64,000 bases of DNA from Styela clava (Eukaryota). A model generated the notes under the pieces. That model made no database searches. It was not told the origin of the DNA and saw nothing but the letters and a program-made list of their open reading frames with translations. Positions 19,395-50,802 of this stretch are shown here, piece after piece (the stretch's first letter is position 1; every line of letters begins with the position of its first letter). Position numbers and translations under genes: made by a program. Location: NCBI RefSeq assembly GCF_964204865.1, contig NC_135254.1, positions 21,382,199 through 21,446,198 of the forward strand. Reading direction: 5' to 3'.

Positions 19395-19668
19395 AAAAAG
19401 GTAGATAAAATTTCGCATGATGACCTATAATCCGATACATAACCTTGTAAATATACCGGAAATAGCGCCATAAAACCATGGCGAGAGGCGCCGTGGTTCT
19501 TTCGTGGCAGGAAGTGGTAATGACTGCGTCTCCTGTTTTGCGCTGTTTCCCTCTGTTTTGCGCTGGTTTCCTTCTGTTTCGCACTGTTTTGCGCTGTTTC
19601 GCGTGGTTTTGCGCTCTTTGCGGTGTTTCGCGCTGTATTCAGTAAGTAGTAAGACCCGGTAAAAAGAG

Positions 19669-19795
19669 CCTCCAGAAGTATGTGCACCAAGATGGCGCAC
19701 AACTTGAAAATAGTATGTGTGTGTGTGTGTGCGTGCGCGCGTGTGTAGCGGATTCAGGTTGTGCGACATATTGCTGCACATACTTCTGGAGCACC
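19669..19795. repeat. foldback MITE with (GT)n loop, second copy
   Basis: Same structure as the copy at 19279. Confidence 0.65.
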
Positions 19796-25912: not shown

Positions 25913-27085
25913 CTAAATAGAGGAAGATTCATCATCACTGTCTGATTCATCTGTTTCATCATTTTGAATGGTGAGACTCTCGTAGAACGTATGGTATTGC
26001 GGTGGAATGAGATTTTTTTTACACAGCTTCATTAAGGCACCATATTTTTCCATTGTAATTCCCGGTTTTTTTTTGTAGCTTCGCCTCATTTCATTCATCC
26101 TGGGTAACATATCCAGGGTTCCTGAAATTCTTCGACTCAACCTCACTTTTTTTATGAATGAAACTTCCTGATATTCTTCTTCTGCATAAAGGTACTTGAA
26201 GAAAAACTTATCAGGTTTTTCACCAGAAAACTTGGCCTGCATGATCTTAGACCATTTGATCTTTGATCCATTCACTTTTAGGTTTGATTTGTAAACGTCT
26301 TGAAACATGGTGAGTTTTTCTCCAAATTTGAAATCCAGGATATCACTATGGGACATTCTAGTCATAGTTATATTTCTATTTTTATTCCCTTTAGTCAATG
26401 CTTGTACGATGACAGATTCCCACTGATCGGTGGTAAAGGTATGCAGCCGTTTTGACTCTTTTTCGATAAGAGAATGTGCACAGTCATTCTCGTTTTGGCT
26501 ATGCCCTGTAACAAAAAAGCTTAACGTTATATCTGAAAATCCAAACCAATTAAGGGCAAGGGATAGCATGATGTATACCATGCGGTTGCAATTTTGTCCT
26601 GCGCATCTGTCACAAAAAAGGTACACACTCTTCACACCCTTTTTTTGTAAAAACTTCAAGTAGAGCAACAGTGCAGACGCCACCTCATTTGAACCCTTTT
26701 TTGCTTCTTCCTCATTCCACAAGTAACAATGAACTTCTTTAAAAGACGAGATGTCCGAAACTGTGAAGTTGTAGTTTCGCAGTCTCATGCTATAGTAAAA
26801 TGAGGAACTCTCTCCTGCAGGTGCCAGGAGTGTTTTTTGAAAGTCAAATGCTGATGCTTGAATATGGCTATTGTCTTGTGCTTTTTCTTTTATTTGTGCT
26901 TTGAACACCCTGCTCAAGTTCTTTTCTTGATCATGTTCTGCCTTTGATTTTACTATTTCGGTAGTTCTCAATGAATCTTTTGTATTGTCCCATGCATCAC
27001 ATATGTCACATCGATCCTTTTTGGGTTGATGAAATTTTATATTAAAATTATCATGAAAAATGGACAAGTAAGCTTCGTATTTCAA
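25913..27085 (-). CDS. transposon ORF 2 (390 aa): putative DDE-type transposase catalytic region (family not recognised)
   Basis: Contains spaced acidic residues in conserved-looking blocks (YLFCDRCAGQN ... FFVTGHSQNENDCAHSLIE) and a C-terminal acidic tail. It does not match hAT motifs. It may be one gene with ORF 1 via frameshift, or a separate one (4-nt overlap). Confidence 0.45.
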   Translation of the reverse strand: MKYEAYLSIFHDNFNIKFHQPKKDRCDICDAWDNTKDSLRTTEIVKSKAEHDQEKNLSRVFKAQIKEKAQDNSHIQASAFDFQKTLLAPAGESSSFYYSMRLRNYNFTVSDISSFKEVHCYLWNEEEAKKGSNEVASALLLYLKFLQKKGVKSVYLFCDRCAGQNCNRMVYIMLSLALNWFGFSDITLSFFVTGHSQNENDCAHSLIEKESKRLHTFTTDQWESVIVQALTKGNKNRNITMTRMSHSDILDFKFGEKLTMFQDVYKSNLKVNGSKIKWSKIMQAKFSGEKPDKFFFKYLYAEEEYQEVSFIKKVRLSRRISGTLDMLPRMNEMRRSYKKKPGITMEKYGALMKLCKKNLIPPQYHTFYESLTIQNDETDESDSDDESSSI

Positions 27086-28536
27086 GGGATTCTCAATGTT
27101 ATTTGAGGCAAATATTGATATTTAGACTCCTTTCGAACATAGTGACTTTGAACTGTCTTAAACATACAAATATGTTCAATTACCTTTTCCACTTTTTTTG
27201 GATCAAATCTGTTATGGGGTACAGTTATACCACGCATATCATTTTCAACACTTCCAATAAATTCTTTTGATAATGCTGTTCTAACTTGTTTTCTTGAAAC
27301 ATCAAGAGTTGTGAGGAAAAATGTCTGACAAACCTCAAACTGATCTCCACTTTCCTTCTGAAGAAAATATTTGAAACTAACATCTCTTTTTTTGCGTCTG
27401 ACTTCAATATCTGGTCTCAATCTGCTTCTTTTAATTTTGCATTTTTCAATCATTTTCGTAATATAAATTCTTTTTGACAATATGTTATCTAATTTCCAAT
27501 AATTTTCAAATAAAACTTCTCTGTCCTTGGCAGAAAATATTTCATTGCACTTTTTTTTACATGAACTAGAACATGTTTTCTTTATTTCTCTTTTAGGCAT
27601 CAATCTAATTTCTTTATTTTTTGTTCTGTATTGGTAAGACTGTCCATGCATTCGAGCTTCCTTCCTAATATTTCTCTGCCACTTGGAGATATTTCTTTTT
27701 CTTTTTCTTTCTGTCAAAGGAGTAGGTGTTATCCAGTCTGTTGAACACTGTTCATTAACCTGATTTTCTGTTTGGTCACAAAGCTTATTTATGTCACACA
27801 GATTCCATGTGATGGCAGTACCTTCCTTGTGTTCTACAAGGTTAAAATATGGCCAATGGATCGCAGTTTGGAACACTTTAGTTATAAAAAAACTTCCTTG
27901 TCTATCCTCACAGTGAACACTTCTACACTTTGCTTTGAATATGGGATATCTTTCATAGCATAGAATTACTTCTTCACTTTCGACGACTGAAATGTCAACC
28001 TGGTGCTGTACTGTGGAATTTGATTTATCACTGTCAGATTCATTGTTTTGAGCCGTCCAATAACATGGCATAGACTGAGACTTTTCCTTCTCATAATTAT
28101 AAGTTGGATCTTTATCTGAATCATCATTATAATATTCAAAAGATTCATCTGATAAATTTTCTTCCTGGTCTTCGTTTTGAGAATTTTGAGCTTCAACAAG
28201 GACAAAATCTTTTTCCTCATCACCGATATCAAGTTTTAAAGCATTTTTTGGAACTGAAGTTGTTTGATTGTCAATAAAAAATTTGACTCGAACAGTGTTG
28301 GAGTAGACGCAAACTATCACTCCTTTTAACAGCGTCTTATCTTTATATGGTAAACTATTACTGTATTCACGCTGTTCATTATCGAAATATGTAGCAGGGA
28401 GATAAACTTCTTTTCCTGTTTGCAGAATCTGACTCTCAGTGCTATCCCAACTTCGTGTGCCACAGGGGAATTCAGATTCAGGACCTAACATTGCTTCACT
28501 GATAAATTGTATATAGCTTTGGGAAAAGTTAAACAT
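27082..28536 (-). CDS. transposon ORF 1 (484 aa): acidic Asp/Glu-rich protein with possible N-terminal Tudor/Agenet-like fold and basic Cys-containing middle region
   Basis: Long uninterrupted ORF inside the nested TIR element. It has an N-terminal W..G..V.A.Y.D....Y.G.I..V......V.F pattern, an acidic low-complexity stretch and basic KRKR/KKK clusters (putative NLS or DNA binding). Its stop overlaps the start of ORF 25913..27085 by 4 nt. Confidence 0.5.
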   Translation of the reverse strand: MFNFSQSYIQFISEAMLGPESEFPCGTRSWDSTESQILQTGKEVYLPATYFDNEQREYSNSLPYKDKTLLKGVIVCVYSNTVRVKFFIDNQTTSVPKNALKLDIGDEEKDFVLVEAQNSQNEDQEENLSDESFEYYNDDSDKDPTYNYEKEKSQSMPCYWTAQNNESDSDKSNSTVQHQVDISVVESEEVILCYERYPIFKAKCRSVHCEDRQGSFFITKVFQTAIHWPYFNLVEHKEGTAITWNLCDINKLCDQTENQVNEQCSTDWITPTPLTERKRKRNISKWQRNIRKEARMHGQSYQYRTKNKEIRLMPKREIKKTCSSSCKKKCNEIFSAKDREVLFENYWKLDNILSKRIYITKMIEKCKIKRSRLRPDIEVRRKKRDVSFKYFLQKESGDQFEVCQTFFLTTLDVSRKQVRTALSKEFIGSVENDMRGITVPHNRFDPKKVEKVIEHICMFKTVQSHYVRKESKYQYLPQITLRIP

Positions 28537-31075
28537 ACAAGATTATTAAGTAGAACACAATTTAATACATACAAGACTACTAAATAGCACACAATTTAAT
28601 ATTTATAATCTTTAAATTATTATGCAGTTATACTTAAAGCCTGCTATTCAATATACCAAGGCTCTTATCCCATTTAATATCTAACTTTCCAGGGTAAGCT
28701 ACCTCTAGTAACCTGTTTCCTGTAGCACATGCTCATAAGTATAACTGCAATATGCTTTATCAGTTGTCTTCATCACAATGAATAATTTGTTTCAGCCAAT
28801 CAGGACAATCATATTTATTTTTTCATGTTCTTTGGGACTACTTGATTCTAAACTTTGCCATAGAATGGGCCTATGTTCATTTTGACAGTAAATATGTGGG
28901 ACTGAAAGGGCCTAAGTCCAGCATATTGGACATAGGCCTGTTCTGTTCTCAACACCTCTATGATTATAGCATTCCTAAGTCCAGCTAAAATTTTTATTAT
29001 TGAGAAATTCAGGATTTCAAGACCACCATCTTGTAGAGCATGGCTCAAAACCCCAAAATATTGAAAAAAGTGAATTTTGCAAAAATGTGACTTAGGCCCC
29101 TTCTGTTCTCATCCGGCGATATATTGTTGAATAAATTGAATGGATTCCCCAATTTTTGTGAATTTATTGTATTGCATTAACAAAAATATTTGTCCGGCCC
29201 ATTTCAACATAGTTTGAGTCATACCCGGCCCACGGTCGAAAAAGTTTGGTGACCCCTGTTATATAGGAATAAAATAAAATCTGAATTTCTGGAAGGATAA
29301 ATTTTGGTATGCAATCTCGTTAACCTAACAATGACAGGGTTCGGGTTAGGAACAGAATTCTCTGAATTTTTTTTTGAGATCACACATTGAGCAAGTGGTA
29401 TCATGTACAAAAGGAGTTTAATGACGCATACCAAAGTAGCGTCCAAATTTTTTTACAATGTTTACAAATGCATAAATGCTTTGATAGTGATTTACTGGCA
29501 ACACAACTTTCTTAAAAAAAAATTAAAAAAATTTGTTGTTGTTTTGGTTACGTAAAATTATAAATGCAAAACAAGGTAACGAGCTATTGTGCGAATTTTT
29601 TTCCGAAATTTTACCAAGGAATTATCATTTGACTAGTAGAATTGCCATTATTGGTGTCAACAAAACTTATATTATTCACAGTTTTATTTTTAGTATTTTA
29701 TATTGCCGCTTTTCAACTTTTCGACATAGTTAATGCTTTGTTCTTTGCCCGCGAATTATGCTGGGCCTTGCACGAAATCAATAACGTGAAAAGATACGTC
29801 CAGCGGTGAAAATTGTTTATAACAACTTTAGATCTAGTTAATTTTTTAGCGATAATAATTAATTGTTGTAATGAAACACAGTTTGCCTCTTTCATTTCTC
29901 TCGCAAGTGCCAACAATAACACTATTGAAAGATTTTGACAATGAGAAAATCATTTTAAATTGTACAAAATGAATTAGTTGTGCAAAACCGTGGCGCGTGA
30001 TCGGCGGTGCGTTTGAAGACGGAGTATGACCCGTGCTGGCGCGCATTTTTCACGAAAATGTGAGGTGCTCCGAAGGCGCCCTGATCCACATTATTGTAAG
30101 AAAACAGTTATAATATCGGTAACTATTAACCGTTTAATTGCGTTTGACTATCGCACTTTTCGGAAATGGTAATTTTGTAAGGCGGGAACAACATGTGTTT
30201 TTGCGAAATTATTGGGGGGGCGACTGCCCCCCCTCGCCCCCCCGGGTGTCCGCCCCTGCTCTACCTGGTTTTACTTTGAAATGCTGAAAGTTTGTCGCGC
30301 ATTTGCAAGTCCCCACGGCGAAACCATTGGGAACCGCTACATTGCACCGTTTTTCTTTATCAATATAACCCTTTCATTTTTTGGTGTTCCGCGAGGAGAT
30401 ATAAAAACTGTGGCCGAAAAATGGAAACTTTCACGTATAGCAAAACAAAATATTTCATCATCTATCCGCTGAAAGGAATATGCGGTGCGGTAACCTAACA
30501 GTACCATACCTGTAGCCCTGATATTCGATCGCGGGACCGCCTGAAACAATTTAAAAACAGTGTTCCATGATTTTTGATGTCACAATCACTAACGCTTACA
30601 TTTATCCTAATACAGTGTAACCATGTTTCCCATGTGCCGAAACATCACTGTCCATCGGCTAAATGCTTGATTGAAACATCAGCGCAACAGTTAATACAAG
30701 ATAGAATTTTATAATATTGCACATCCCTAAACGTGTCGTTGGAAGTTAAGTTTCAGTAAACAGAAAGGTTGGTGATGAGCACAGACAATTTCAAAAAACT
30801 GGGAAATGCAATATTTCTTTGTTGAGCGTATGAGCATCCTGACATGTTTTATCTGCACAATTGAAGTTGCTGTGCACAAGGAATACAATTTAAACGAGTT
30901 GCTCAGCTTTTATTGTGGAAAACCTGATGTGGCCCGGACTCATTTGAGACTCTGCCCCAGCAAAGCTGCCCCAAAGAAGCTTCACGTACCGGCAGTTGGG
31001 AACCACTGTTCTAGTACATCGTTACATTACACCAGTTATACGAGTTGAATTTGGTTCAAATTTGGTTTGGAAAAA

Positions 31076-31252
31076 ATGGTTCAATCTTTGATATATTTTA
31101 GGAATAAGTTGGTAAACAAAAGCCTTCAGAAAAACATAGAAAACAAGAAAAAAGTTATTGTCCCCAATAAAAGATGGCTTCAACATTTCACTGACAAGGA
31201 TGCGAAGGTTGGTTGCCGAAACTTTAAGACCTTGATTCTAGACATGGGATAA
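31076..31252 (+). CDS. PARP4-like gene A, candidate first coding exon (start of PH-like domain, ...NKRWLQHFTDKDAK)
   Basis: An ATG at 31076 follows an in-frame stop at 31046. The exon ends AAG|GTTGGT (donor). The ...WL.HFTDKD.K end is conserved with gene B exon 43163..43222. Further upstream exons cannot be excluded. Confidence 0.4.
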   Translation: MVQSLIYFRNKLVNKSLQKNIENKKKVIVPNKRWLQHFTDKDAKVGCRNFKTLILDMG

Positions 31253-31570
31253 CAGTTCAATGTTGAATTTTTTATCAGGATTGGCAGATTTGAGACATAT
31301 TCATGGGTCTAAATATTTGTATGGGCATTTTTAAAAGCCATAGTTCACTGTTGTGAATAATAATTGCTTCAATATATAACATTGTACGGATAATTGTATA
31401 TGCAGGAAGTTTCTGGTTATTTTTCATATCTTATCCTATTTTAAATATTTGAAATGCTATCATTCACCATTGAATTTGAATTTCAAAGATGATAATAGCT
31501 TTAAGTACTGCAATTTTTATTACTGCTTAAATTATCAGATTGTATGATATATTATTTCTTTGCATGCCAG

Positions 31571-31648
31571 ATAAGGCGACACTTCTGGTGTATAGATGAT
31601 GACTATGTCACACTTTTCTTGACTGAAAGTGAATCACTATTTTTCAAG
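31571..31648 (+). CDS. PARP4-like gene A exon 2 (PH-like domain; IRRHFWCIDDDYVTLFLTESESLFFK)
   Basis: Flanked by acceptor CAG at 31568-70 and donor GT at 31649. It is 78 nt, phase 0. It is 24/26 aa identical to gene B exon 43376..43453, which has the same length and canonical splice sites. Confidence 0.6.
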
Positions 31649-32643
31649 GTAATAAATAGTTCTATAAGCAATTTTGTCTACCATATCCAACATTGAAGTT
31701 GTTTAAATTATCTATCATGATTCATGTCTTATCAATTTCATAATTTCTTTTATTTTGCTTTTTTTATTTATAAGAAGATACCGCATAAAAAAATCATGGT
31801 AATTAGCTGAAGCAATCAATGTATTCATTGTGTTATCTCATATAGAAAAGCAGAATTGCTGGGGCGTTAAATGAGTGCTCATAAGGAAGGAAGTGTTAGG
31901 CAACATATCAGACATGTGATGATTCAGTGTCAATCAAAATATACAGACCATAAACAAAGTAATAGACAACTTGGGAACCAATCTAAGTGGGTTGAAGCAG
32001 AGAATAAGAGGATGAAGCAGGCCATAATATTTACCTCATGGAATGAAATGACAAAAAAATTCATCTGGCAATAATCTGACAATGGCTTTATTGTGTTACT
32101 ACATGTGATCATTAAATTTTATGCTGTCTTGAAGTTGTTTAAGGAATTGTATAACATTAATACCCAAACTGTGTTAGGTATTCTACTAGTGGTTATGAAA
32201 ATTTACTGCAAGTGAATGAATATGTTTTTCTATGATTCCGTTGGTTTTACAATAATTATTATAAATTGTTCCAAGTTTCTGTCTTATCTTCCTTTGACTC
32301 AATACCACTCAGGAATGCTGTGTATAGTTTTTCTAACTCGAAATGCTAGTTCTCGACAATTTAATAATCATTGGGCAGGGATCATGTACCTATCTGTATA
32401 AGACATAACTTATAATGCGCTCTGAGTGATTTTGTACTTTAAAAAAGTCAGCTATTCTGTGGAGGTGATGGCGATTGTTAATTAATAATCGTAGTGCAAT
32501 TATAAGACCATTCTGTGGTTCAATCCGGCTTTATATAAGCAATTTTTTACGTCATTTTTTACGTCATTCAATTAATAACATTCAATGAAATTTGAAACTC
32601 AGTACCATACCTCATTTATGTCCATCGATTTTTCTTCTCACAG

Positions 32644-32774
32644 AAAATTCTTTTGACGGATATCATGTCAATCAATAAGGGCAAATGTTCTCAATCATTG
32701 AAATATGATTTCAAGTTAACTTTATCAAATTTGACTATTTTTGTCTTTGAGGATTTATCAAAGGATTTTGACAT
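32644..32774 (+). CDS. PARP4-like gene A exon 3 (PH-like domain; KILLTDIMSINKGKCSQSLKYDFKLTLSNLTIFVFEDLSKDFD)
   Basis: Acceptor TTCTTCTCACAG and donor GTGAGT. It is homologous to gene B exon 43703..43824, which is 9 nt shorter and in the same phase. Confidence 0.55.
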
Positions 32775-32909
32775 GTGAGTCTTTAATTGTTGTTGTATTG
32801 TTGGTTTTTAAATTCCTCGTATGTGTTACTATTTGTTAACATTTAGCTGTTATCAGTTGGTAAGTGTAGTTTGTTTCTATTTGAGCCATAACCTTGTCTT
32901 TGCTTCAAG

Positions 32910-32992
32910 GAATCAAGAAAAGCATTGGTATGACATACTGAAACAAGCGCATTCGTCTGCTGTAAATCATGAGAAGATTGCCAATGTGAATG
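32910..32992 (+). CDS. PARP4-like gene A exon 4 (PH-like C-terminal helix; ..EKHWYDILKQAHSSA..)
   Basis: Acceptor CTTCAAG and donor GTAGGC. It is 83 nt, identical in length and phase to gene B exon 44039..44121, and carries the conserved HWY..LK.AHS.AV helix. Confidence 0.55.
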
Positions 32993-33282
32993 GTAGGCAA
33001 TGGGTTTAAATGAACTATTTTATTGCTGTATTTTCATCCCAATGATAATATATATATATTTTATATTGCCAAGATAAAATTGGGAATTGGGTATACTTCA
33101 TAACACTTCAATTATCATTGTATATTGTAGCACAGCTGATGTTTGGTGAATAGAGATATACTTTTTATCTCATGTCAAAATTAAAAATTCACTCATAGTC
33201 TCTATGCTTCTTGCACTTCTATTAATTGGAACATTTTCAATTTAATATTGTTCACCAAACAAGTTTGATTTTGTATTGTCAG

Positions 33283-36200
33283 AAAATGAAAGAGTTCCAA
33301 AGAAGAAAAATATATTTGATAAACTTCAATTCGCCCTTGAACTTGGAGATGCATCATTTGAAACAAAGAAGACTTTACGTGAACAGATAACAAGTCATGG
33401 AGGACAAATCTCATACATATTGACCAGTAATACTGATTTTATAGTTCTTTGCAAGGAATTGATTGCCCAATCTATGCATTCATATAAAATTCGCAAAGCA
33501 GTTGCATTTGGCGTACCTATTGTTAGTGAAGAATTTCTCACAGAATGTGTAGGGAAGAATCAACTTGTCGATTTCATGGATTTTGCTCCGCAGACTGATA
33601 CAATTCACAATTTTTCGTTGGGAAAAATATCATCACAACCCATCAATGTAAAAAAGTTTGTTTCTAAAAAATTGGACCTTGGAAAAATTGTACAATATAA
33701 ATTAGAATCTGGTGACTGTCCTTGTTTTCCAAATAAATATGAAGTTCCCAAATTTTCGATTTTAACAAAAAGTTTTGAAGAGAATGGTGAAATTAATGAA
33801 ATGTGTTGTGTTGAAGCACAGGTTGGTATAACTGCAAATCAGAATAATCAAAAGATGTATAGAGTCATGGTTTCATATAACAATATTAGCACTTGCTCAA
33901 CTCATCACGTGTATCCATTAAATAATTCATTTGAGTTAGTCCAGTGTTATGAAAAACTTGTAACACAGTTCCTTGATGATGGAATGAAACGAGCTATTGG
34001 AATTTCAAAGGATCAATTCTCTGATATTGTTTCACCTTCACTCAACCTTGTTTTAACGGAAATGAAAATTTCATCAGGAATTCTCCATCCTGAAGTCGCA
34101 CGATTAGTCAAAACTATTTGGCTGGATTCGCTAGACGAAATAATGATGACATTTGGTGTCGGGCCATATGGTATTGATGTTGAACAAGTCAGAAATGCAT
34201 TGATTGTTCTGATGCAAATAGAAAAGTCCATCAAAGAGAAAGATTTCAAATCAGCTTTATCTGACAAATTTTACCACTTTATTCCACAGACAGATGATAA
34301 AAAAGAACCAATTGACAGCATTCAAAAAATTGCAAAGAAAAGAGAATTATGTCAGCTTTTAAAAGACATCACTTTAGTGAATGAGACTTCTTGGTTTTCT
34401 AAGGACTGTAATGATTCTTTATCACAATACACCGCATTGAAGTGTGCTATAATGTGGATTGACCCAAAAGAAAAAGAATATAAACTCATCAAAGACACAC
34501 TTCCTGACATCGATGGAAAAACATACAAATTGCAAAATATATTCAGAGTCAGTCGCTCTGTTGAAAACTCGCAGTTTAAATCAGATATTGGCAATACTAA
34601 ACTTCTATTTCATGCATCCCACCCTCATAATTTTGTTGGTATTTTATCGAGAGGTTTAATGTTGCCACTCACACTGTCTAGTGAGTATGGAGTCTCAAGG
34701 AGTGATGAAGGAAACCTTGGCGCTGGAATTTATTTCTCAGATTCATTTTGGATGTCTTCAAAATTTACCGCACGAAGCCAAAGTCGAGGTTCCAGAATAA
34801 TGCTTGTTAGTGAAGTAGCACTGGGAAAAGTATTCAACACAAAGGAACCTATGGCCCATTTATTGGCTGCACCAGTGGGTCACGATAGTGTGAAACGCAC
34901 GCATGCCACAGATGCAGTTAAATCTGATGCTTCAGAATATGCAGTGTATAACAAAAATCAACAGAGGATGTGCTACATCATTGAATTCACAATTGATGAT
35001 GATAGTTTGGTTAATCATGACAAAGTAGTGATACCTTTAAGTTTTAAGATGAATAAGAACACTACCGCTGAAATTGCTGCTGAGCGTGAGAATTTTGAAC
35101 CAAAAGTTGAGGAAGTTAGATATGGCCTGATCATGGAATCAAAAGATATTTCTGCAATATTAGAGGAAGTTCATATCAGAGCAAAAGTTATTGATTTGGT
35201 GTCAGAAGTCACTATTTTTCAGTCGTACATCAATACAACCAATAAAACTGTTGAAGCAAAATATGTTTTTCCTCTCACTGAAAACGCTGCTGTATGTGGA
35301 TTTGAAGCTTTTATAAATGACAAACATGTAATAGGAGAAGTTAAAGAGAAAGAACAAGCCCACAAGGAATATAAAAAAGCAGTAAGCGAAGGTCATGGAG
35401 CTTATTTGATGGATGAAGAGAAATCTAATGTATTTTCTGTTAGTGTTGGTAACATTCCTCCTGCAGCTCGCGTAATCATTAAAATTAGTTATGTTGCTGA
35501 GCTCGAAACTACTAACGAACCTGACAGTAATGTTTTATTTACATTACCAGGAAGCATTGCTCAATGGGAGGAAAAATCTGTGTTGCTTTCAAGTTCTGCT
35601 ACTCAAGAAGTTACGGAATCAACTTCTGTTTCAAATGAGAAAAAATCTTCAGTTATAATATCAATTGATATGCCGTTTGATATTCTCGATATCACTTCAC
35701 CTACTCATAAAATTGTAATGAAAAAGACATCTACAAAGGCTTGTGTAAAACTGCAAAAGTCAATTAACCTGGATGGAAACAATTTTCGTTTGCTGATCAA
35801 AGTAGCTGAAATTCATGTTCCTCGTATTTGGATTGAAAAGGAAAATGAAGAAAGCAAAGATCAAGTGGCAATGGTGACTTTTTTTCCTGAATTTGAATTC
35901 GATGCAGTAGAGAATTTCAATTGCACAGTAATGTTGGATATGTCGAATTCCATGAAAGGATCTGCTGCATGTCATTCTAAGCATTTATGTTCATTGCTTA
36001 TCGAAAATTTGCCAGATCAATGTGATTTTAATGTCATCTCATTTGGGTCATATTTCGAAGAGGTGTTCATTGGATTTGAAAATGTTTCAACTACTTCTAA
36101 AAAACAAGCAAAAGATTTTATTACATGTTGTAAACCATCTTTTGGAGGATCTGATCTTTTTTACATTCTTAATTCAGTCTTCCTACTTCAAAATAATTCA

Positions 36201-39200
36201 TACAATAATGAGTTACATAATATATTCCTCTTTTCTGATGGTCATTTGTCTGAAGAGGAAAGACTTTTCAGGCTTTGTAAGGAAATTTCAAAAACCAGTC
36301 ATTGTCAAACAAGAATTTTTACATTTGCTGTTGGAAATTCACCAGATAACCACACTCTACAGAGTTTATCTATATTAACTGGAGGGTCTCATGAACAATT
36401 CTTATCTTCGTCAAAGAGGACATGGAAAAGACAATTAAGCAATCAACTATTCAATGCTAAACAACCTGCATTAACTGATGTACATATTGATTGGTGCAAC
36501 TATGATAACAAATCCGATGGTTTTCAAGATTCAACTGTTTTGCAGGTTCCAGAAAAAGTAAAATGTGTGTTCAGTGGATCTCAACTTGTCGCATACAGTT
36601 ATGTTCCAAACTGTCTGAAAGCAACTCTTTGTGCTAATATTAATGGAAAAGAGTTCTCTACAATGGTAAATGCGAACGGATTATCAAAAATTACTGGAAT
36701 GACATTGCACAGACTTGCAGCAAAAGCTGTGTTCAAGGAACATGACTGTGGTAGACTTGCTGATGATGCTTTGTGTGATCAGATGTTGAAAGAGGAAAGA
36801 AAGTCAATTATTATTTCAATGAGTATGAAATACTCAGTTGTTTCAAAATATACAAGCTTTGTAGCTATTGAGGAAAGAAAACCTGGAGAAGATTTAAGCA
36901 TAACATGTGGACCATCTCTATCTAATCTTGTTGATGAATCTTTCATTGATATCATTTCTGAAGTAACATGGGGGGCTGAAGAGAAATCTGTGGAAGAAAA
37001 TGTGGATGAACTACTGAAGAAGTCTTTGCAAATTCAATCAAGTTCTATACTGCAATCTCGGGATTTAGCTCTGGAAGCAAAAGCATTGCATAGCACATTG
37101 GAAGAAAAAGATCCACTGAGGAAGTTACGAATATGTGCGACGTTATGTAAATTGGATGTGAACAGCGATCAACTTGATGCATGGCTTGATTTGAAAACCA
37201 TGTTGTTGAAAACTGATAAATCACTGAATTTTGAAGTGATGAACACGATCGCTAAATTTGACAATTCATCGCCCAGACATAATTTGTTGGATATTTTTAG
37301 TAGCTGTTTTCCTGAACACTGTTCAGTCCATCTCCAATCTATTCCTGAAATTTTTCAGCCACTTGCCATTGGAGGATACACTGAAATCTGTCATTTTTAT
37401 GAAACTGTGGGAGAATGTTTTAGAGATTTTCCTCTTTTTTGGGAAGAGTTTCATGATGTTTGTTGTTGTGATGATAAGAGTTATAAGGATGTTTCTTTGG
37501 CATTGAAAGTCTTGATCAGAGAATTGAAGTTTATAAATAAACCTCACAAAAAGAAAAAAAGGTACAAGCCCAAATTATGCCCATTTTCAATAGCCACCCC
37601 ACCATCATCACTACCTAGGCCTCTACAAGCTGTTCCACCACATCTAACACCAATACCAGCAAATTCATCTCTATTTGGATCAGCAAGATCAGGTATTTCA
37701 CCATTACCACCACAGCAATCTTTTCTCTTTGCATCATCTGGTCCTCCGCCACATCCACCACCTGGATCTGACTTTACACCATTACCACCACCATTACCAC
37801 CGAAACCATCTGTATTTGGATCAGCAATTCCACCACCACAACTACTACCTGGATCAGGTATTTCACCATTATCACCACAGCAATCACTTCTATTTGGATC
37901 ATCTGTTCCGCCACCTCCACCACCTGGATATGACTTTCCACTACCACCAAAATCATCTCTATTTGGATCATCTGTTCCCCCACCACAACCACCTCCGCCA
38001 CCTGGATCTGTCTTTCCACCATCACGACATCAACAACCACCAAAATCATCTCTATTTGGATCATCTGTTCCCCCACCACGACCACCTCCGCCACCTGGAT
38101 CTGACTTTCCACCATTACCACCACCACTACCACCAAAATCAGCTCTATTTGGATCATCTGTTCCCCCACCACAACCACCTGGATCTGCCTTTCCCCCATC
38201 ACCACATCGACAACCACCAAAATCATCTCTATTTGGATCATCTGTTCCCCCACCACGACCACCTCCGCCACCACTACCACCAAAATCATCTCTATTTGGA
38301 TCATCTGTTCCCCCACCACGACCACCTCCGCCACCACTACCACCAAAATCATCTCTAGTTGGATTAGATGTTCCCCCACCACGGGCACCTACACCACCTG
38401 GATCTGCCTTTCCACCATCACCACCACAATCATCTTGTTTTGGATCAAGTCCTCCACAACCACCGCTTCCAAAATTTAGATCTGTCATCCTACCACAATT
38501 GCGAAGTTCTGGATTTGTATCAGCCACTCCAATATCGCAACAGTATCAAACTGAATCTGCCATACCACCTCAATATCATTTAAGCAATATAACTTCTTCA
38601 TTTCTTTCGATGACTGACCCACTAGTTCCATCGCAATCTTCAGTCCAATCAGCAGCAGGTTTTTCATTTGGTTTGGCCAGGTCTTTTGCATCGCGAAATT
38701 CAATGCGGTCAGTTGCTTCATTTGGATATTCGTCCACTTCCAGGCAATCAAACACCCCACTACCTACACAAGCTGCGTGCATGGTATCAAATGCTGAACT
38801 CACTTCAGATGATAGTTTTGACACTAAACCATCATATCATCATTCTTCTGAGGTTGCTAGAAGTAATTTTTATGAAGAGTGTGAGGATTCATATTTGTTA
38901 CCAAAAACGAAAAATCTATTATCCAGAAAATCCGAACAATCTCAAGATATTGAAACCAAACAAATTTTTGGTGGAAGATCTAAATTTGACAATTCACATG
39001 AACCACAGGATATTTATGAGAGCTTGGAGGATCTTAAGTCACAACAATTAAAGACCAGTGGAAAAAGAAGAAACCCACCAGTAGTTCTTACAAGGTCTTC
39101 TCAAAGTTGTGAAGTTATGTTTGATTCACTTGAATGTGTTCAGACAGATACATCTACATTAAACTCTGAAAGTTCATCTGATATGTATGAAGATATAATA

Positions 39201-39230
39201 TTGTTAAATCAACATTATGACCTGGTTATG
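33283..39230 (+). CDS. PARP4-like (vault-PARP-like) gene A giant exon: BRCT, PARP helical regulatory domain, PARP catalytic (ART) domain, VIT, vWA, Pro-rich repeat region, Ser-rich tail
   Basis: A 5.9-kb open frame with a splice acceptor (TTGTCAG) at 33276-33282. It has a BRCT-like N-terminus. An HD-like block (..ALSDKFYHFIPQ..) follows. The ART motifs are LLFHASHPHNFVGILSRGL, GAGIYFSDSF, LVSEVALGK and ASEYAVYN, giving an H-Y-E triad. VIT spans KYVFPLTENAAVCGFEAFIND...VIIKISYVAELE, then the vWA MIDAS motif DMSNSM follows. The donor GTAAGT sits at 39231. Confidence 0.85.
37660..38460 (+). repeat. intragenic tandem repeat, about 10 units of 90-96 bp, encoding (K.SSLFGSSVPPP[RQ]PPPPPGSDFPPLPPPLPP)n
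   Basis: Recurrent TCTCTATTTGGATCATCTGTTCCCCCACCAC(G/A)ACCACCTCCGCCACC units are visible. Poly-His, Gly-rich and Val-rich ORFs in the other frames and on the opposite strand are by-products. Confidence 0.85.
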
Positions 39231-39581
39231 GTAAGTTATTTTTATGAACTATTTTACTTGATTACCGATGAATATATCTAGACCTGCCGTGTTACTTCCC
39301 AATTATATCTATCTGCCTGAACTAACGCAGACAATATGCCAGGAATTTAATATTTTATGAAATGTCTGTACTATTTGCAATAATTTGTTGAATGGGTTGA
39401 AGAAATGTAAATTTAGCTTTGTTTTTTGACACAAAAAACACTTCATATTGAGTGTTCATTTCATTATTTGTTTGTTCATTCTTATTTCTATACAAATCGA
39501 TTTATTGATGAGTAAAGCCATCCACATTTATGAAGTAATGCTGAAAGTGCATAAAATTGGTAATTCACATTTTATCAACAG

Positions 39582-40121
39582 ATTGAGGACGAGGATGACG
39601 AATTAGAACAGTCTAGCGGATCCATCAGTGCTGCATGGGATGATGATTCTGAATGCACGGAATATGAGTGGAAAATGGTTAAAGCTATGATGAAACTCCT
39701 TAACCTCACAGTTAGTGAACTAATGGAAATTTTCAAATCTGGATTAAGTCCAGATGGCTTTTGGAAATTTCCTAGCAATGAAGCCATCATGTCTGAAGAG
39801 TTTTCTGAAATTGAAGTTAAACTATTGAAAATTTATCGAGAAATAGTCATTTCTGCTGGTGCGCTATCTTTTGGTAGCAAAGTTTTGTCCACAGTGTTAG
39901 ATATGCTGTATACAGCGATTATCATAAAAATTCTTAAATTTATTAATGAATCAAGTAAAGTGTATGACATGATAAAAGATGCTGAAAACTGGTTGAAATT
40001 AGCTGATGCGAAGCAACCATTTTTATATGAACGGCTAGAGTTAGGATCATCTTGGGAAATGGCTGCAAATGCAGTGATTGTCAAAGTGTCTGAGGCTGTG
40101 CTCAATTCTATCTCTGGTTAG
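39582..40121 (+). CDS. PARP4-like gene A terminal exon (conserved C-terminal module; stop at 40119-40121)
   Basis: Acceptor TTTATCAACAG at 39571-81, in frame with the donor at 39230. The translation IEDEDDELEQ...GFWKFPSNEAI...VISAGALSFGSKVLSTVLDMLYTAII...LELGSSWEMAANAV is about 55% identical to the C-terminus of gene B (GFWRFPDEETI...VISAGAQSLGSQVLSLVTDMLLTAIV...LELGSSWEMAAKLV). Confidence 0.7.
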   Translation: MEDEDDELEQSSGSISAAWDDDSECTEYEWKMVKAMMKLLNLTVSELMEIFKSGLSPDGFWKFPSNEAIMSEEFSEIEVKLLKIYREIVISAGALSFGSKVLSTVLDMLYTAIIIKILKFINESSKVYDMIKDAENWLKLADAKQPFLYERLELGSSWEMAANAVIVKVSEAVLNSISG

Positions 40122-43702: not shown

Positions 43703-43824
43703 AAAATTTCATTAGCAAGCATCAAATCAATCAAAGAGAGCAAGAAGTCCAAGTGCTTGTTCAAGCTGGTTCTATCCAACATGACTATTTTTGTGACTAG
43801 CAGTGATTCTGAAAAGTATAAAAT
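43703..43824 (+). CDS. PARP4-like gene B exon 3 (PH-like; KISLASIKSIKESKKSKCLFKLVLSNMTIFVTSSDSEKYK)
   Basis: Acceptor CCTATTAAG and donor GTAAGA. Paralogous to 32644..32774. Confidence 0.55.
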
Positions 43825-44038
43825 GTAAGAGTTTATGATTATACCAATCATAATTTTGTTATTGTAAAAATCTAGGATTATTGTGAACATAAAATTACAT
43901 ATTAATTCTACTGATTTGTGAATTTACTTTTTGATAAATAAAATTGTAAAATTTAAAATACCTTAACCGGTGTTTCACTGTGGGATAATATTTTAGATGC
44001 ATTTGATTTTTAAGTTGAAGTATATGATTTTTGTTAAG

Positions 44039-44121
44039 GATTCTGATGAACCATTGGTATAATATGCTTAAAGAGGCCCATTCTGCCGCAGTAAAACGGG
44101 AGAATACTGTGCTACCTCTTG
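44039..44121 (+). CDS. PARP4-like gene B exon 4 (PH-like C-terminal helix; ..NHWYNMLKEAHSAAV..)
   Basis: Acceptor TTTTTGTTAAG and donor GTATGT. It is 83 nt, paralogous to 32910..32992. Confidence 0.55.
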
Positions 44122-44996: not shown

Positions 44997-45073
44997 ATTT
45001 AGACAACACTAATCCCAGTTGCAAAAAAAAAACAGTTCTTAGGGATCATTTTTTACCTATTTGTTGTTTTCAG

Positions 45074-48000
45074 AACAAAAAAAACTCTCAAAACATGGAA
45101 GCATTTTCAAGAAACTTCAGTTTTCTCTGGAACTAGGGGATACGACGTATGAAGCAAAGAAACATTTGCGTGAACAGATCACTAGTAATGGAGGACAAAT
45201 TTCCTATATTTTAAATGGAAATACTGATTATCTGATTGTGTGTGAGAGAAAAACTTCCACATCGAGTAAGTCCTACAAAATTCACAAGGCAAGAGAACTA
45301 GGAATACCCATTGTGAGAGAGATCTTCATAACAGAATGTATTGAAAACGATAAAATTGTTGATTTTCTGGATTACGTTCATGGAAAACCAATTGTTGAGA
45401 GTTATTCTGCTGGGAAAATATTGGTTTCTAAGGCAAAGCCGAAGGAGCCTTCTGAAAGATTCGAAGTAGAAAAAGTCATTAAATATAAAGTTGATGCTGG
45501 AGACTGCCCTGTTTTTCCAGATAATTTCCAAGTAGCCAAATACTCTATTCTCGCAAAAATTACTGAAGAAAGAACACCAAATGATATGTATTGTGTTGAA
45601 ACACAGGTTGGGTTACACGATAACTGCAAAACAATATTTCGCGTCATGGTTTCCTATAAAAATGTCAGTGGTGTATCATTTTGTCATGTTTATCCTGTGC
45701 AAACTTCATCAGAGGTGGTTCAGTGTTATGAGTCCTTGGTAAAGCAGTTTATCGCTGATGGATTCAAGAAAGTCATTGGAATTCCTGGCGATGGGTTCTC
45801 TGGAATTGCTTCTGCTCCACTGAGTTTGCTTTTAAATGAAATGAAAATTTCATCTGGAATTATTCATCCCGAGGTCGCTCGATTGGTAGAATCTGCGTGG
45901 TTAGAATCTCTTTGTGAAATAATGACAAATTTTGGTGTTGAACCTTTTACTATACATCATGAACAAATTAGGAATGCAATGATTGTTCTGATGCAGATAG
46001 AAAATTCAATCAAAAGAAAAAGTTTTAAATTGGAATTATCAAATAAGTTTTACCAGTTTATTCCCCAAAGAGATGGTAGGAAGGAACTGATAGACAACAT
46101 GCAAAAGATCGCAAAAATGAGGGAATTATGCCAGCTTTTGAAAGACATAACCTTGTCCAATGAAACTTCTTGGATTTCTAAAGACTTCAATGATCGCCTG
46201 TCACAATATACCGCATTGAAGTGTGCTATAATGTGGATTGACTCGAAAGAAAAAGAATATAAACTCATCAAAGACTTACTTCCTGATAATATCGATGGAA
46301 AAGGATACAAAGTACAAAATATATTCAGAGTCAGTCGCTCTGTTGAAAACTCGCAGTTTAAATCAGATATTGGCAATACTAAACTTCTATTTCATGCATC
46401 CCATCCTCACAATTTTGTTGGTATTTTATCGAGAGGTTTAATGTTGCCACTCACACTGTCTAGTGAGTATGGAGTCTCAAGAAGTGATGAAGGAAACCTT
46501 GGCGCTGGAATTTATTTCTCAGATTCATTTGAAATGTCTTTGAAGTTTACAGCTCGAAGCCAAAGTCGTGGTTCCAGAATAATGCTTGTTAATGAAGTAG
46601 CACTGGGAAAAGTATTTTATACAAAGAATCCCATGACTGATTTGATAGTCGCGCCAGAAGGCCATCATAGTGTAAAAGGTACAGGTCTAACAAAATTTGA
46701 TGATGTTGACGACATTGCATCTCATGCTTCAGAATACGCGATATATGATGCAAGGCAACAGAAGTTACGCTACCTTATTGAATTTACAACGACTGATGAC
46801 ATCATGACTATTTATGACAGAGTTCCAGTCCATTTACCTTTTAAACAAAAAGAGGATAAGCAGGTGAATGAAACAGTGGGTGATAATGAGAATTTTGAAC
46901 CAAAAGTTGAGGAAGTTAGATATGGCCTGATCATGGAATCAAAAGATATTTCTGCAATATTAGAGGAAGTTCATATCAGAGCAAAAGTTATTGATTTGGT
47001 GTCAGAAGTCACTATTTTTCAGTCTTACATCAATATGACCAATAAAACTGTTGAAGCAAAATATGTTTTTCCTCTCACTGAAAACGCCGCTGTATGTGGA
47101 TTTGAGGCTTTTATAAATGACAAACATGTAATAGGAGAAGTCAAAGAGAAAGAACAAGCTCAAAAGGAATATAAAAAAGCAGTAAGCGAAGGTCATGGAG
47201 CTTATTTGATGGATGAAGAGAAACCTAATGTATTTTCTGTTAGTGTTGGTAACATTCCTCCTGCAGCTCGCGTAATCATTAAAATTAGTTATGTTGCTGA
47301 GCTCGAAACTACTAACGAACCCGACAGTAATGTTTTGTTTACATTACCAGGAAGCATTGCTCAATGGGAGGAAAAATCTGTGTTGCTTTCAAGTTCTGCT
47401 ACTCAAGAAGTTACGGAATCAACTTCTGTTTCAAATGAGAAAAAATCTTCAGTTATAATATCAATTGATATGCCGTTTGATATTCTGGATATTACTTCAC
47501 CTACTCATAAAATTGTGACGAAAAAGACATCTACGAAGGCTTGTGTAAAACTGCAAAAGTCAATTCACCTGGATGGAAATAATTTTCATTTGCTGATCAA
47601 AGTAGCTGAAATTCATGTTCCTCGTATTTGGATTGAAAAAGAAAATGAAGAAAGCAAAGATCAAGTTGCAATGGTGACTTTTTTTCCTGAATTTGAATTT
47701 GATGCAGTAGAGAATTTCAATTGCACTGTAATGCTGGATATGTCGAATTCCATGGAAGGATCTGCGGCATCCCATTCCAAGCATTTGTGTTCATTGCTGA
47801 TCGACAATTTGCCAGATCAATGTGATTTTAATGTCATCTCATTTGGGTCATATTTCGAAGAGACGTTCATTAGATATGAAAATGCTTCGACTACTTCTAA
47901 AAAACAAGCAAAAGATTTTATTACATGTTGTACACCATCTTTTGGAGGATCCGATCTTTTTTACATTCTCAATTCAGTATTCCTACTTCAAAATAATTCA

Positions 48001-50802
48001 TACAATAATGAGTTACATAATATATTCCTCTTTTCTGATGGTCATTTGTCTGAAGAGGAAAGACTGCTTGGGCTTTGTAAGGAAATTTCAAAAACCAGTC
48101 ATTGTCAAACAAGAATTTTTACATTTGCTGTTGGAAATTCACCAGATAATCACACTCTACAGAGTTTATCTATATTAACTGGAGGTTCACATGAACAATT
48201 CTTATCTTCATCAAAGAGGACATGGAAAAGACAATTAAACAATCAACTATTCAATGCTAAACAACCTGCATTAACTGATGTACATATTGATTGGTGCAAC
48301 TATGATAAGGAATTCGATGGTTTTCAAGATCCAACTGTTTTGCAGGTTCCAGAAAAAGTAAAATGTTTGTTCAGTGGATCTCAACTTGTCGCATACAGTT
48401 ATGTTCCAAACTGTCTAAAAGCAACTCTGAGTGCTAATATTAATGGAAAAGAGTTTTCTACAATGGTAAATGCAAACGAATTATGCAAAATCACTGGAAT
48501 GACATTGCACAGACTTGCAGCAAAAGCTGTGTTCAAGGAACATGACTGTGGTAGACTTGCTGATGATGCTTTGTGTGATCAGATGTTGAAAGAGGAAAGA
48601 AAGTCAATTATTATTTCATTGAGTGTTAAATACTCGGTTGTTTCAAAATATACAAGCTTTGTTGCTATTGAGAAAAGAAAACCTGGAGAAGATTTAAGCA
48701 TAACATGTGGACCATCTCTGTCTGATCTTGTTGATGAATCTTTTATTGATATCATTTCTGAAGTAACATGGGGGGCTGAAGAGAAGTCTGTGGAAGAAAA
48801 TGTAGATGAACTACTGAAGAAGTCCTTGCAAATGCAATCAAGTTCTATACTGCAATCTCGGAATTTAGTTCTGGAAGCAAAAGCATTGCATAGCACATTG
48901 GAAGAAAAAGATCCCCTGAGGAAATTACGAATTTTTGCAACTTTATGTAAATTGAATGTGTTCGAGGATAATTTCAATGGATGGACTGAAATGAAGAATT
49001 TGTTGTTGACAAGAGGCAAAGTGTTGAATTTTGATGTGATAAATGCTATCACAAATGCTGAGGATTTGACTTTCCTACAAGATTTGTTTGTTGTATTCAA
49101 GAGTTGTTTTCCTGAACACTGGACAATCCAACTTAGTTCTGTTCCAAAAAAGTTTCAAGCACTTTCTGTTGGCGCTTTTTCCGAAATTGTTGGTTTTTGT
49201 GAAGATTTTCCAGACTGTTTTGAAAAGGTCTCCATATTCTGGGAAAAGTTTCGCAAGATCTCATGCCATGATGAAAAGGCAGATAAATATCTTTATTTTA
49301 AAACAAAAGAATTGATCAGAACATTCAAATCTTCCATTCTCCCGCTGCAACTATCAGATATATCTGAATATATTGAAAAAGAGAAGACTGTCGTTGGGAG
49401 ACTGTGTGCAAAATCAAGGCGTAGTTCTTTCCTGCACAGGCCTCATAAAACTTCTTTGATGTCTGAATCAAGTGCTAAAAAATCATCTGCACCAAAAGTA
49501 CATTCTGATCAAACAGATCATTTCGGGGGTATTCCCACTGGAGTTGAAGGCACTGTTAGCGATGATATAAATAGGAATGTTGGTAAAGCTGTTATTTTTT
49601 CTCCACAGTCTCCATTGAAAACAGTTTCCGTTCGACGATCGAGATCTATGAAGAAGAGAGTTATTAGTAAATACACTCCAATGCGTAATGATTCAGAACT
49701 TAGTCCTACATCACCAGTTATCAGTGAGAAAGCACAATCTTCAGCTTTCCACAATATTTCTTTAAAGTCAGCTCAGTTTAAAGTTCAGCGAAGACCAATT
49801 GCATCTATAGATGACTGCTTGTGTCTGCCAGATGTGACTCAGACATCTTTTCAAGACCTCCATCATGACCTAAAATTGTTATCCAATTATGATGATCTTT
49901 TGTCTGCTGCTTCAAAGTCTGACGATGCACAGCAACAACTTAATTATGAAGACTTCTTTTCAGATCCATGTACTCAAGAAATTGAAAGTATCAGTGTGAG
50001 TGAATTTTATGGATTTCCAAGTCAGTTAGAGGTAAAAACGGACTCCATTGGAGTGTTGGAAAAAGAAGAATTAAAATCATCGTATAGTGAAACGATGCAA
50101 TCCTCAAAATCTAGTTCTAATGGTAGCTGGTTATCTAGGTGCGATGATGAACATAAACAAGTTAATAATGTTTCACATGGAGTTCGTTATGTACCGGATT
50201 ATTTATCTGAAGAGATGGAACCAGACGAAAATGAAGAATATTTTGAAGATTTTCTTTCTCCAATAAGCACAAGTTCGTTTTGTGATACATTTTATACTGA
50301 TCTTGAGCATGATAAATATGCCGATGCATCCAACATTCTCGGAACAATAATGAAACGATTTAATCTCTCTGAGAGTAAATTAGTGGATGGTCTTGAACAT
50401 TGTGCAACACTTGGTGGATTTTGGAGGTTTCCAGATGAAGAAACAATTTCTTCTAATGAGCTATCTCCAGCTGAATATCAAATGCTTTCATTATTTCGCA
50501 ATGTTGTAATCTCGGCAGGTGCTCAATCTCTTGGCAGTCAAGTTTTATCATTAGTCACAGACATGTTGTTAACTGCAATTGTTTTGGAAATTCTTAAGCT
50601 TGTCGACGATGGAAATAACATGATTGTGAAGAATATGCTTGAGCGTGGCAAAAAATGGTTAAAATATGTCGATACATTAAACCCATCTCTGTATAAACGA
50701 CTTGAATTAGGTTCGTCTTGGGAAATGGCAGCAAAGTTGGTGATCAATCAATTATCTGAGAAGCTGCTGGAAGTAACAGATATAGCAATGCAGTCCAAAT
50801 AG
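45074..50802 (+). CDS. PARP4-like (vault-PARP-like) gene B giant terminal exon: BRCT, PARP HD, PARP catalytic, VIT, vWA, long Ser-rich divergent region, conserved C-terminal module; stop at 50800-50802
   Basis: A 5.7-kb open frame follows the acceptor TTGTTGTTTTCAG at 45061-45073. It has the same ordered domain motifs as gene A (LLFHASHPHNFVGILSRGL, GAGIYFSDSF, LVNEVALGK, ASEYAIYD, VIT block, DMSNSM). It lacks the Pro-rich repeat array and the 3' intron of gene A. Confidence 0.85.

Follow-up and report, generated by a model that had tools for sequence, protein, structure and literature searches.

An SSLFGS-polyproline tandem array in the linker of a Styela clava PARP4 paralogue as a probable amplification of an old linker motif

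The function of vaults and of the vault PARP, PARP4, is a long-standing question. In human PARP4, intrinsic disorder has been predicted for the linker which joins the ITIH-like body to the MVP-interaction domain (MVPID) (Suskiewicz et al. 2023, PMC10450202). The largest exon of the human gene, exon 30 (residues 1223-1582), to which the linker corresponds, is highly variable in sequence and length among vertebrates, and recurrent positive selection on the exon 30 region has been described in mammals (Daugherty et al. 2014, PMC4038475). Cryo-electron microscopy placed the C-terminus of PARP4 at an anchor near the vault waist, with the remainder of the protein reaching the lumen via long disordered regions (PMC12280208). 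Here we describe the linker of a PARP4 gene (gene A) of the tunicate Styela clava, which lies with a tandem paralogue (gene B) in a 64,000-nucleotide stretch of contig NC_135254.1 (positions 21,382,199 to 21,446,198 of the forward strand; the window, in which all positions below are counted) and which holds a tandem array of proline-rich repeats noticed in an earlier reading of the letters alone (the original prediction). To our knowledge, adaptive evolution has been described for no part of PARP4 other than the linker. The explanation that we favour, and consider probable, is that the array is exon-encoded, recently expanded and variable in copy number, that it lies in the disordered tether of PARP4-A, and that its units amplify an ancient SSLFGS motif together with a Pro-rich tail.

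Unit borders were set by anchoring on the xFG motif, which divided the array into 11 in-frame units (1a, 1b and 2-10) of 54, 87, 78, 69, 93, 93, 84, 63, 63, 81 and 63 bp, respectively. The original prediction of about ten repeats in the frame of gene A was therefore borne out, with the limits moved from 37660-38460 to 37659-38486, but the uniform length of 90 bp given to the repeats was not, only two units being of about that size. The array is composed of 37% Pro, 18% Ser and 7% Gly, and each unit opens with (P)K/Q-S-S-L-F-G-S and continues into a polyproline stretch. Tandem Repeats Finder reported a period of 93 bp (3.6 copies, 85% matches, 37943-38272) and a period of 63 bp (3.0 copies, 93%, 38213-38398), and also called a 177-bp super-unit. 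When the window was searched for the 23-nucleotide core TCTCTATTTGGATCATCTGTTCC with up to three mismatches, six occurrences were found, every one within the array, with none expected from 100 shuffles; at the same threshold the core was not found in gene B or in the rest of the window.

Alignment of the units and the resulting identity matrix separated a young centre from diverged edges. Units 4-8 share 88-100% DNA identity, units 7 and 8 being identical to one another and each equal to unit 5 minus 30 bp, whereas the edge units (1a-3, 9 and 10) showed 60-85% identity to the others. The description of the repeats as near-identical at the DNA level is thus accurate for the centre and not for the edges, and the accompanying suggestion of a young or homogenised array holds for units 4-8. 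The 5' units can be read as two diverged super-units, in each of which xSSLFGSA..SGISPL(P/S)P is followed by QQS(F/L)LF(A/G)SS..PPP..G(S/Y)DF..PLPP. A young centre with decayed edges is usual in arrays which grow by unequal exchange, and the Styela array would have grown by unequal crossing-over or by replication slippage. At the protein level, nine hFG[SAG] motifs (h, hydrophobic), together with one LVG and one LFA variant, are spaced 18-31 residues apart, and SLFGS is the only near-invariant element. Three motif types had been described as stacked at fixed spacing in the repeats; this is correct for unit 5, which alone corresponds to the 31-residue peptide quoted at the time, and partly correct for units 1b and 3, but does not apply to units 4, 6, 7, 8 and 9. 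No GSDFPPLPPP module occurs in units 7 and 8, and VFPPSRH, AFPPSPH and AFPPSP stand in its place in units 4, 6 and 9, respectively.

With respect to the host gene, the best database matches of gene A were all PARP4 or PARP4-like proteins, the closest of them from Styela clava. Its spliced translation equals residues 167-2328 of the S. clava RefSeq protein XP_077968685.1 ('PARP4-like', P0246) exactly, so that the gene and its array are already annotated as coding. Pfam placed BRCT/BRCT_2 at residues 20-110, PARP_reg at 280-386 and PARP at 411-581, all over their cut-offs, followed by VIT at 639-749 (128.5 bits) and VWA_3 at 896-1048 (67.2 bits). The large exon codes for the BRCT, HD, ART, VIT and VWA domains, the remaining ITIH-like region and most of the linker including the array. 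The domain encoded by the last exon can be aligned to the C-terminal ends of gene B and of other tunicate PARP4s, and a profile built from the C-termini of four tunicate proteins, window 39582-40118 among them, matched residues 1575-1704 of human PARP4 with E=6.1e-8; the RLELG..W motif is kept in the alignment of the tunicate and human MVPIDs. A putative H-Y-E triad, which we take to reside in LLFHASHPHNF (His), GAGIYFSDS (Tyr) and ASEYAVYN (Glu), was placed by presumed correspondence to the HGS, GIYF and NEY motifs of PARP1. By these homologies the gene A product is assigned to the vault PARP, and the proposal that the array is attached to an ADP-ribosyltransferase could be made specific, since a PARP catalytic domain is present in the same open reading frame and the enzyme is PARP4.

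The array occupies residues 1472-1747 of this reading frame, between the end of the homology of proteins A and B (residue 1428) and the MVPID, and sits in the linker joining the ITIH-like (VIT-VWA) body to the MVPID. Its frame runs for 2011 stop-free codons (33246-39278). That the frame is held for some 800 bp had been taken as a reason to dismiss an intron, but the argument from the missing stops must be rejected because three other frames also stay open across the array, one on the plus strand (37648-38355) and two on the minus strand (37777-38388 and 38033-38545). The conclusion itself stands: the array is coding, as its frame is continuous with conserved flanks and its translation is identical to the RefSeq protein. 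An array spliced out of the mature protein as an intron or exitron could draw on the fact that an open frame proves nothing where other frames are open too, and on an older predicted isoform, XP_039269915.1, which is without exactly unit 4 (93 nt), as though it had been spliced. However, at least 221 residues of the array are kept in all three RefSeq models, the array shares its frame with the conserved coding stretches that flank it in a single 5.9-kb exon, many species have homologous arrays that are coding, and the absent segments are whole repeat units, as expected of copy-number alleles. We regard removal by splicing as highly improbable.

The three RefSeq versions of the array measure 273 (the version of the window), 252 and 221 residues and differ by exactly one 21-residue and one 31-residue unit, the missing units being 7 or 8 and 4, respectively. 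These whole-unit differences support variation in copy number, in agreement with the original prediction that the array is probably polymorphic. Amino acid variation was also raised in this part of the protein. Between the window and XP_039269914.1, 12 substitutions and a 21-residue indel were counted in the 458 residues of the linker at 1431-1888 (2.6%), compared with 11 substitutions in the 1418 folded residues at 13-1430 (0.8%). Downstream of the array, at 38900-38912, the window differs from XP_039269914.1 and XP_039269915.1 by one base in the length of an A-run (ccaaaaacgaaaaat). The two older proteins shift frame past EDSYLLPK and end without the MVPID, with the window and XP_077968685.1 remaining in frame; a homopolymer error in the older assembly is the likely cause, and a truncating allele is possible.

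Gene B provided an internal comparison. The two proteins share 76% identity as far as residue 1428; past that point no alignment is possible before the MVPID, so the linker is not alignable between the two paralogues. The gene B linker is Ser/acid-rich (17% Ser) and by motif count contains no hFG[SAG] motif, no PPP run, no array and no SLFGS. Within the window the array is therefore confined to gene A and faces a Ser-rich linker in gene B, as had been proposed. In the closest outgroup protein (P0003, 43% identical) the aligned region contains single-copy, proline-poor counterparts of the motif, FGAALPAKADIDF and PPPSLFLPGDGSS, and gene B has TSLMSES at the aligned position. This suggests that the motif was amplified in gene A and lost in gene B, the alignment of the linker region being uncertain. 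Elsewhere the DNA identity of the two genes (33246-37560 versus 45043-49360) is a mosaic, at about 65% in 33246-34134 and from 37114 onwards, 96% in 34435-34731 (the ART core) and 93-98% in 35314-37113 (VIT-VWA, ITIH-like). The pattern suggests gene conversion homogenising the folded core of two old duplicates, and the inferred conversion tract stops about 550 bp upstream of the array.

A search of PARP4 linkers for the SSLFGS-type motif, defined as [STAQGP][STAL][LFCVM]FG[SG], found it in 51 of 203 homologues with 2.0 expected from shuffles, although homologues counted in this way, for motif and arrays alike, are not phylogenetically independent. The carriers comprised tunicates, teleosts, frogs, one lizard, birds, many mammals and rotifers. 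Mammalian linkers share QSSLFGSxxxP(K/R)QF, the human form being ASFGSAAPPRQF, and the Styela peptide paired with the mammalian QSSLFGSxxxPKQF is PKSSLFGSSVPPPRPPPPP. Tandem arrays were detected in the linker region of 28 of 120 homologues, and 26 of these 28 are built of FG motifs and/or PPP runs, with examples in frogs, fishes, birds, turtles, murid rodents and ruminants. The combination of LFG and polyproline was seen in Bufo (SLFGSAIPPPPPPGSG) and Bufo bufo (SLFGSAIPPPPPPGSGPP), in Apodemus sylvaticus (five copies of LFGSTQPPPPPPPP), in Mastomys (TLFGGTHPPPP), in Adineta (SALFGSS...PPPP), and in Gouania and Ictalurus. Turtles, flamingo and ruminants have pure-polyproline arrays of the GGxxPPPPPLPGG type, which resemble FH1, and the linkers of gulls, auks, a plover, a lizard, a rotifer and Ciona are rich in FG with little or no polyproline, the arrays of gulls, auks and Ciona being pure FG. 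Most PARP4s, the human protein included, have one or two linker FG motifs. Among individual entries, murid linkers (P0148, P0142, P0143, P0145 and P0139) carry LFG(S/G)T(Q/H)-polyproline arrays and ruminant linkers (P0211 and P0234) FH1-like GGIVPPPPPLPGG arrays; the sole Mus musculus entry retrieved (P0144, 1587 residues) is without the array region. Precomputed Pfam matches to FH1 and to Nucleoporin_FG are attached to some PARP4 entries.

As units differ in length and flanks between lineages but are near-identical within a species, the amplifications would be independent and the SSLFGS seed old. Judged from these comparisons, the array is an old motif of the PARP4 linker amplified in this lineage, with an SSLFGS core that appears ancient, in a gene that is annotated and a linker whose hypervariability is published. 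An exhaustive phmmer search of 1.84 billion representative proteins with the array as query recovered the S. clava protein, a metagenomic protein with a similar unit (P0121), a spurious repeat protein (P0122) and nothing else; by this search the Styela unit is not a widespread domain. A tighter pattern, FG[SA].{1,3}PP, was considered as a universal PARP4 motif and rejected, being present in only 6 of 64 full-length homologues (0.7 expected). A loosely specified literature search, which does not establish that none exists, showed no paper on FG/polyproline repeats in the PARP4 linker among its top hits. The conservation of SSLFGS across Bilateria and its repeated amplification with polyproline may be new points.

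The possibility that the array is a neutral by-product, in a linker which needs only length and flexibility and in which slippage-prone DNA expands and contracts without sequence-specific function, has to be weighed against this conservation. It would account for the whole-unit gains and losses between RefSeq versions, for an array-free gene B and the many array-free orthologues, and for the high variability of vertebrate linkers in length and sequence (PMC4038475); the near-identity of the central units, which makes them too young for selection to be visible as yet, also counts in its favour. Conversely, arrays of separate lineages share the same two ingredients, the conservation of SSLFGS greatly exceeds chance in a linker that otherwise defies alignment, and it is positive selection, not drift, that has been published for mammals (PMC4038475). 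On balance we find a purely neutral origin somewhat unlikely. A stronger extension of our favoured reading is that SSLFGS with its Pro-rich tail is an ancient linear motif, extending from rotifers to mammals, that is read by a conserved partner, and that its repeated, independent amplification marks a functionally important and contested surface of PARP4. Nuclear-transport receptors or an FG phase, a module of Ena/VASP and profilin, and components of the vault (MVP, TEP1) would be candidate partners. This extension is speculative and we would not expect it to be correct in full.

Returning to the preferred explanation, of a recently expanded array in a disordered tether, the composition of the array fits a disordered segment prone to polyproline-II structure, and a sequence search of the PDB found no relative of the array region. 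In assembled vaults the array would be luminal, just upstream of the vault-anchoring domain. Through polyproline-II structure it may lengthen and stiffen the tether between the anchor in the vault wall and the catalytic head, and its approximately ten SLFGS-polyproline copies could raise avidity for a reader of the motif that other PARP4s carry in single copy. Several observations weigh against this explanation. Disorder is read from composition (75% disorder-promoting residues) and from homologous position only; the array is dispensable for basic PARP4 function because gene B and many orthologues are without it; the 221-residue version belongs to a predicted isoform and could be an artefact of transcript alignment and not an allele; and no more than roughly one quarter of homologues show a detectable motif of the SSLFGS type. 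Serine ADP-ribosylation of an acceptor array, with KS at the unit starts, was also considered as the main explanation and set aside, as the K is not conserved elsewhere (QSSLFGS).

The original prediction had gone further and proposed that the repeats are multivalent ligands of profilin, EVH1 and SH3 domains, which would make PARP4-A a scaffold coupling an ADP-ribosyltransferase, or vaults, to actin regulators. The motif scan suggested along with it was run, using ELM-type regular expressions (for EVH1, [FYWL]PxPP or [FYWL]PP[ALIVTFY]P), and motif counts in the 276-residue array were compared with those of 500 composition-preserving shuffles, a test that overstates significance for repeats. 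The translation proved rich in proline motifs. PPLP was observed six times (shuffle mean 1.2), proline runs of at least five residues five times (1.2), and the class II SH3 pattern P..P.[KR] five times (2.2, with 34 of 500 shuffles reaching 5); acid-flanked DFP..P sites numbered two where 0.1 was expected. In contrast, the class I SH3 pattern [RKY]..P..P occurred once (2.3 expected), and EVH1 sites were found in two of the 11 units, 3 and 5, against a shuffle mean of 2.7, with 387 of 500 shuffles reaching the observed count. The highest enrichment was that of hFG[SAG], observed nine times with a shuffle mean of 0.1. The EVH1 and class I SH3 readings are consequently unsupported because their counts do not exceed expectation from composition, while the counts for FH1-like, PPLP and class II SH3 motifs lend weak support to those readings. 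SLFGS, which the original prediction had listed but left uninterpreted, is the dominant regularity of the array.

The scaffold proposal draws further on the FH1-like arrays of turtle, flamingo and ruminant linkers, on the precomputed Pfam formin-FH1 matches of several homologues, and on a pulldown from mouse dendritic cells with GST-VASP-EVH1 that listed Parp4 and Mvp as inhibitor-sensitive, which its authors flagged as unverified (PMC9581539). However, neither an FH1 nor an FH2 family was found in gene A by Pfam at E<=0.01, and the proline runs are mostly of five residues, broken by R or Q, with only one of six or more. Runs of five residues are short for profilin binding. The most conserved element of the array, SLFGS, is not known to be read by profilin, EVH1 or SH3 domains, and the luminal position expected in assembled vaults would restrict how freely cytosolic actin regulators could reach it, although some PARP4 exists outside vaults. 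PARP4 is not mentioned in a 2025 EVH1 paper. Taken together, we judge coupling to actin regulators unlikely as the role of the array.

The prominence of hFG motifs raised another interpretation, in which the array is an FG domain of the nucleoporin kind (SLFG/GLFG) that forms a cohesive phase inside the vault or at its openings, or binds transport receptors or the FG mesh of the pore and so would link vaults to nucleocytoplasmic transport. Nucleoporin_FG was the only repeat family in Pfam to match the array (29.3 bits, E=1.6e-6), and it also matches Apodemus PARP4 and P0121, but the score for Styela lies under the gathering cut-off of 32.2. Some ten hFG motifs spaced 21-31 residues apart in a low-charge, Ser/Pro-rich context, and the FG-rich linkers of Ciona, gull, auk, plover, lizard and rotifer with their scant polyproline, are in keeping with such a domain; polyproline spacers are atypical of nucleoporins, the one or two FG motifs of most PARP4s fit a discrete motif better than a phase-forming domain, and, as mentioned above, the loosely specified literature search turned up no description of such repeats. 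We consider a nucleoporin-like FG domain improbable.

A host-pathogen interface, with the linker as a target or bait for pathogen factors and the turnover of units as the signature of an arms race, extends to Styela a hypothesis proposed for mammalian PARP4 by Daugherty et al. (PMC4038475). The region concerned is that of human exon 30, which is under positive selection, and the raised amino acid variation and indels within the species would be expected of it. A protein family from contigs resembling those of large DNA viruses, with four to six copies of KGSLFGATVPKPPPLPP, could represent mimicry. This family was found in metagenomic sequence (P0121, L001 6001-7053; members P0123-P0126) and carries KGSLFGATVPKPPPLPP in tandem, with four copies in P0121 and six in P0126; the repeat shares 69% identity with Styela units 7 and 8 (E=1.2e-6), and P0121 has a sub-threshold Pfam match to Nucleoporin_FG only. 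An array-less homologue, P0244 (L003 35-760), has the N-terminus KGMFGS; its neighbours are a DNA polymerase of family B, an SNF2 helicase and a DUF5906 protein, and the genes are packed closely and without introns in the manner of a large DNA virus. The module may reflect viral use or mimicry of the SLFGS-polyproline unit, or convergence. As the support is entirely indirect, the viral assignment resting on the neighbours of the array-less homologue only, and as a single low-complexity match could be convergence, an arms race at this site seems to us a long shot.

The positions of the array units and of the two genes are collected in Table 1. At its N-terminus the product of gene A is extended by about 166 residues (XP_077968685.1 residues 1-166), spread over several small upstream exons; no such extension was found in vertebrate PARP4, and a shorter counterpart was located in gene B at 43781-44120. 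Both Styela paralogues put nearly the whole protein (about 1900-2000 codons) in one giant exon, whereas the human gene is split into many exons, given that its largest is numbered exon 30 by Daugherty et al. The P0003 reading frame (1899 residues) is uninterrupted on contig L002, a layout that is uninformative on exon structure because the contig may be a transcript. In the gene A intron upstream of the exon at 22888, a 401-bp unit is repeated twice with 92% matches (18680-20058) and holds (ACAGCGCAAA)n and (CTGTTTTGCG)n decamer microsatellites in both orientations, plus a (GT)n run. Transposon-derived open reading frames, all on the minus strand, were found at 5348-7400, 9976-10593, 25916-28542 and 60451-63604. 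They comprise a hAT transposase (Dimer_Tnp_hAT, DUF4371), a reverse-transcriptase fragment, a pair containing DUF7869, and a retrotransposon peptidase of the Pao/BEL type.

Table 1. Features of the PARP4 locus of Styela clava, in window coordinates
Feature	Position	Strand	Remarks
Tandem array	37659-38486	+	11 in-frame units, 276 residues, inside the large exon of gene A
Older 5' units	37659-37946	+	1a 37659-37712; 1b 37713-37799; 2 37800-37877; 3 37878-37946
Young central units 4-6	37947-38216	+	4 37947-38039; 5 38040-38132; 6 38133-38216
Young central units 7 and 8	38217-38342	+	7 38217-38279; 8 38280-38342
Degenerate 3' units	38343-38486	+	9 38343-38423 (SLVGLD variant); 10 38424-38486 (SSCFGSS)
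Gene A upstream exons	22888-22971, 31100-31210, 31568-31654, 32632-33006	+	tblastn of the P0001 N-terminus against the window
Gene A large exon	33282-39230	+	5949 nt; acceptor cag 33279-33281, donor GTAAGT at 39231
Linker downstream of the array	38487-39230	+	Further FG motifs GFSFGL and ASFGY; from translation and alignment with gene B and P0003
Phase-0 intron	39231-39581	+	351 nt; GTAAGT...cAG; junction HYDLVM/IEDEDD present in P0246
Last exon, MVPID	39582-40121	+	Stop TAG 40119-40121
Gene B, tandem PARP4 paralogue	45043-50802	+	Same domains and MVPID; giant exon 45043-50799

In genomic terms the array of Styela is unremarkable, being a coding repeat prone to slippage in a gene already annotated, and its value lies in a natural amplification that points to the key unit. 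The SSLFGS-polyproline unit is a defined peptide with which to search for partners, and the tandem paralogues form a natural comparison pair, gene A with about ten copies and gene B with none. If the tentative reading of an ancient motif with a conserved partner is true, it gives a concrete handle on vault function, and should that partner be a transport receptor or the Ena/VASP-profilin module, vaults would be linked to a known cellular machine.

Compared with described systems, the array resembles the FH1 region of formins in having proline runs parted by short G/S/L spacers, with PPLP and P..P.K motifs, in a presumably disordered segment beside a folded effector domain. It differs in that gene A has no FH2 domain or Pfam FH1, in its runs of mostly five or fewer prolines broken by R/Q, and in the FG motif heading each unit, which is foreign to FH1 logic. 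The EVH1 class I ligands of ActA, zyxin and vinculin, of the form (D/E)FPPPP, are matched by DFPLPP in unit 3 and DFPPLPPP in unit 5, but the other nine units do not fit, and there is no acidic C-terminal flank of the kind usual in strong ligands. With nucleoporin FG domains the array shares regular hydrophobic-FG motifs, a low-charge, Ser-rich and presumably disordered context and the weak Nucleoporin_FG match, whereas nucleoporin spacers are rich in Asn/Gln/Thr/Gly and not in polyproline, and gene A encodes a vault enzyme and not a component of the pore.

The nearest comparisons are within the PARP4 family. The vertebrate linkers are placed identically, with the ITIH-like region before them and the MVPID after, are likewise low-complexity or disordered and variable in length and sequence, and keep a small conserved island of the SSLFGS type in a fast-evolving stretch. 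In primates and bats the region has been described for its positively selected point substitutions and not as a tandem array, and Styela is distinguished by a linker within a 5.9-kb exon and by an array in one of two tandem paralogues. The LFG-polyproline arrays of other lineages share with it a hydrophobic residue-F-G-S/G core followed by two or three residues and a proline run; they are likewise amplified in tandem in this linker, their copies being near-identical within any one species. They differ from it in unit length, which ranges from 12 to about 38 residues, and in flanks that vary by lineage, the Styela units being set apart by the GS(D/V/A)FPP...LPP tail and the basic K at the unit start.

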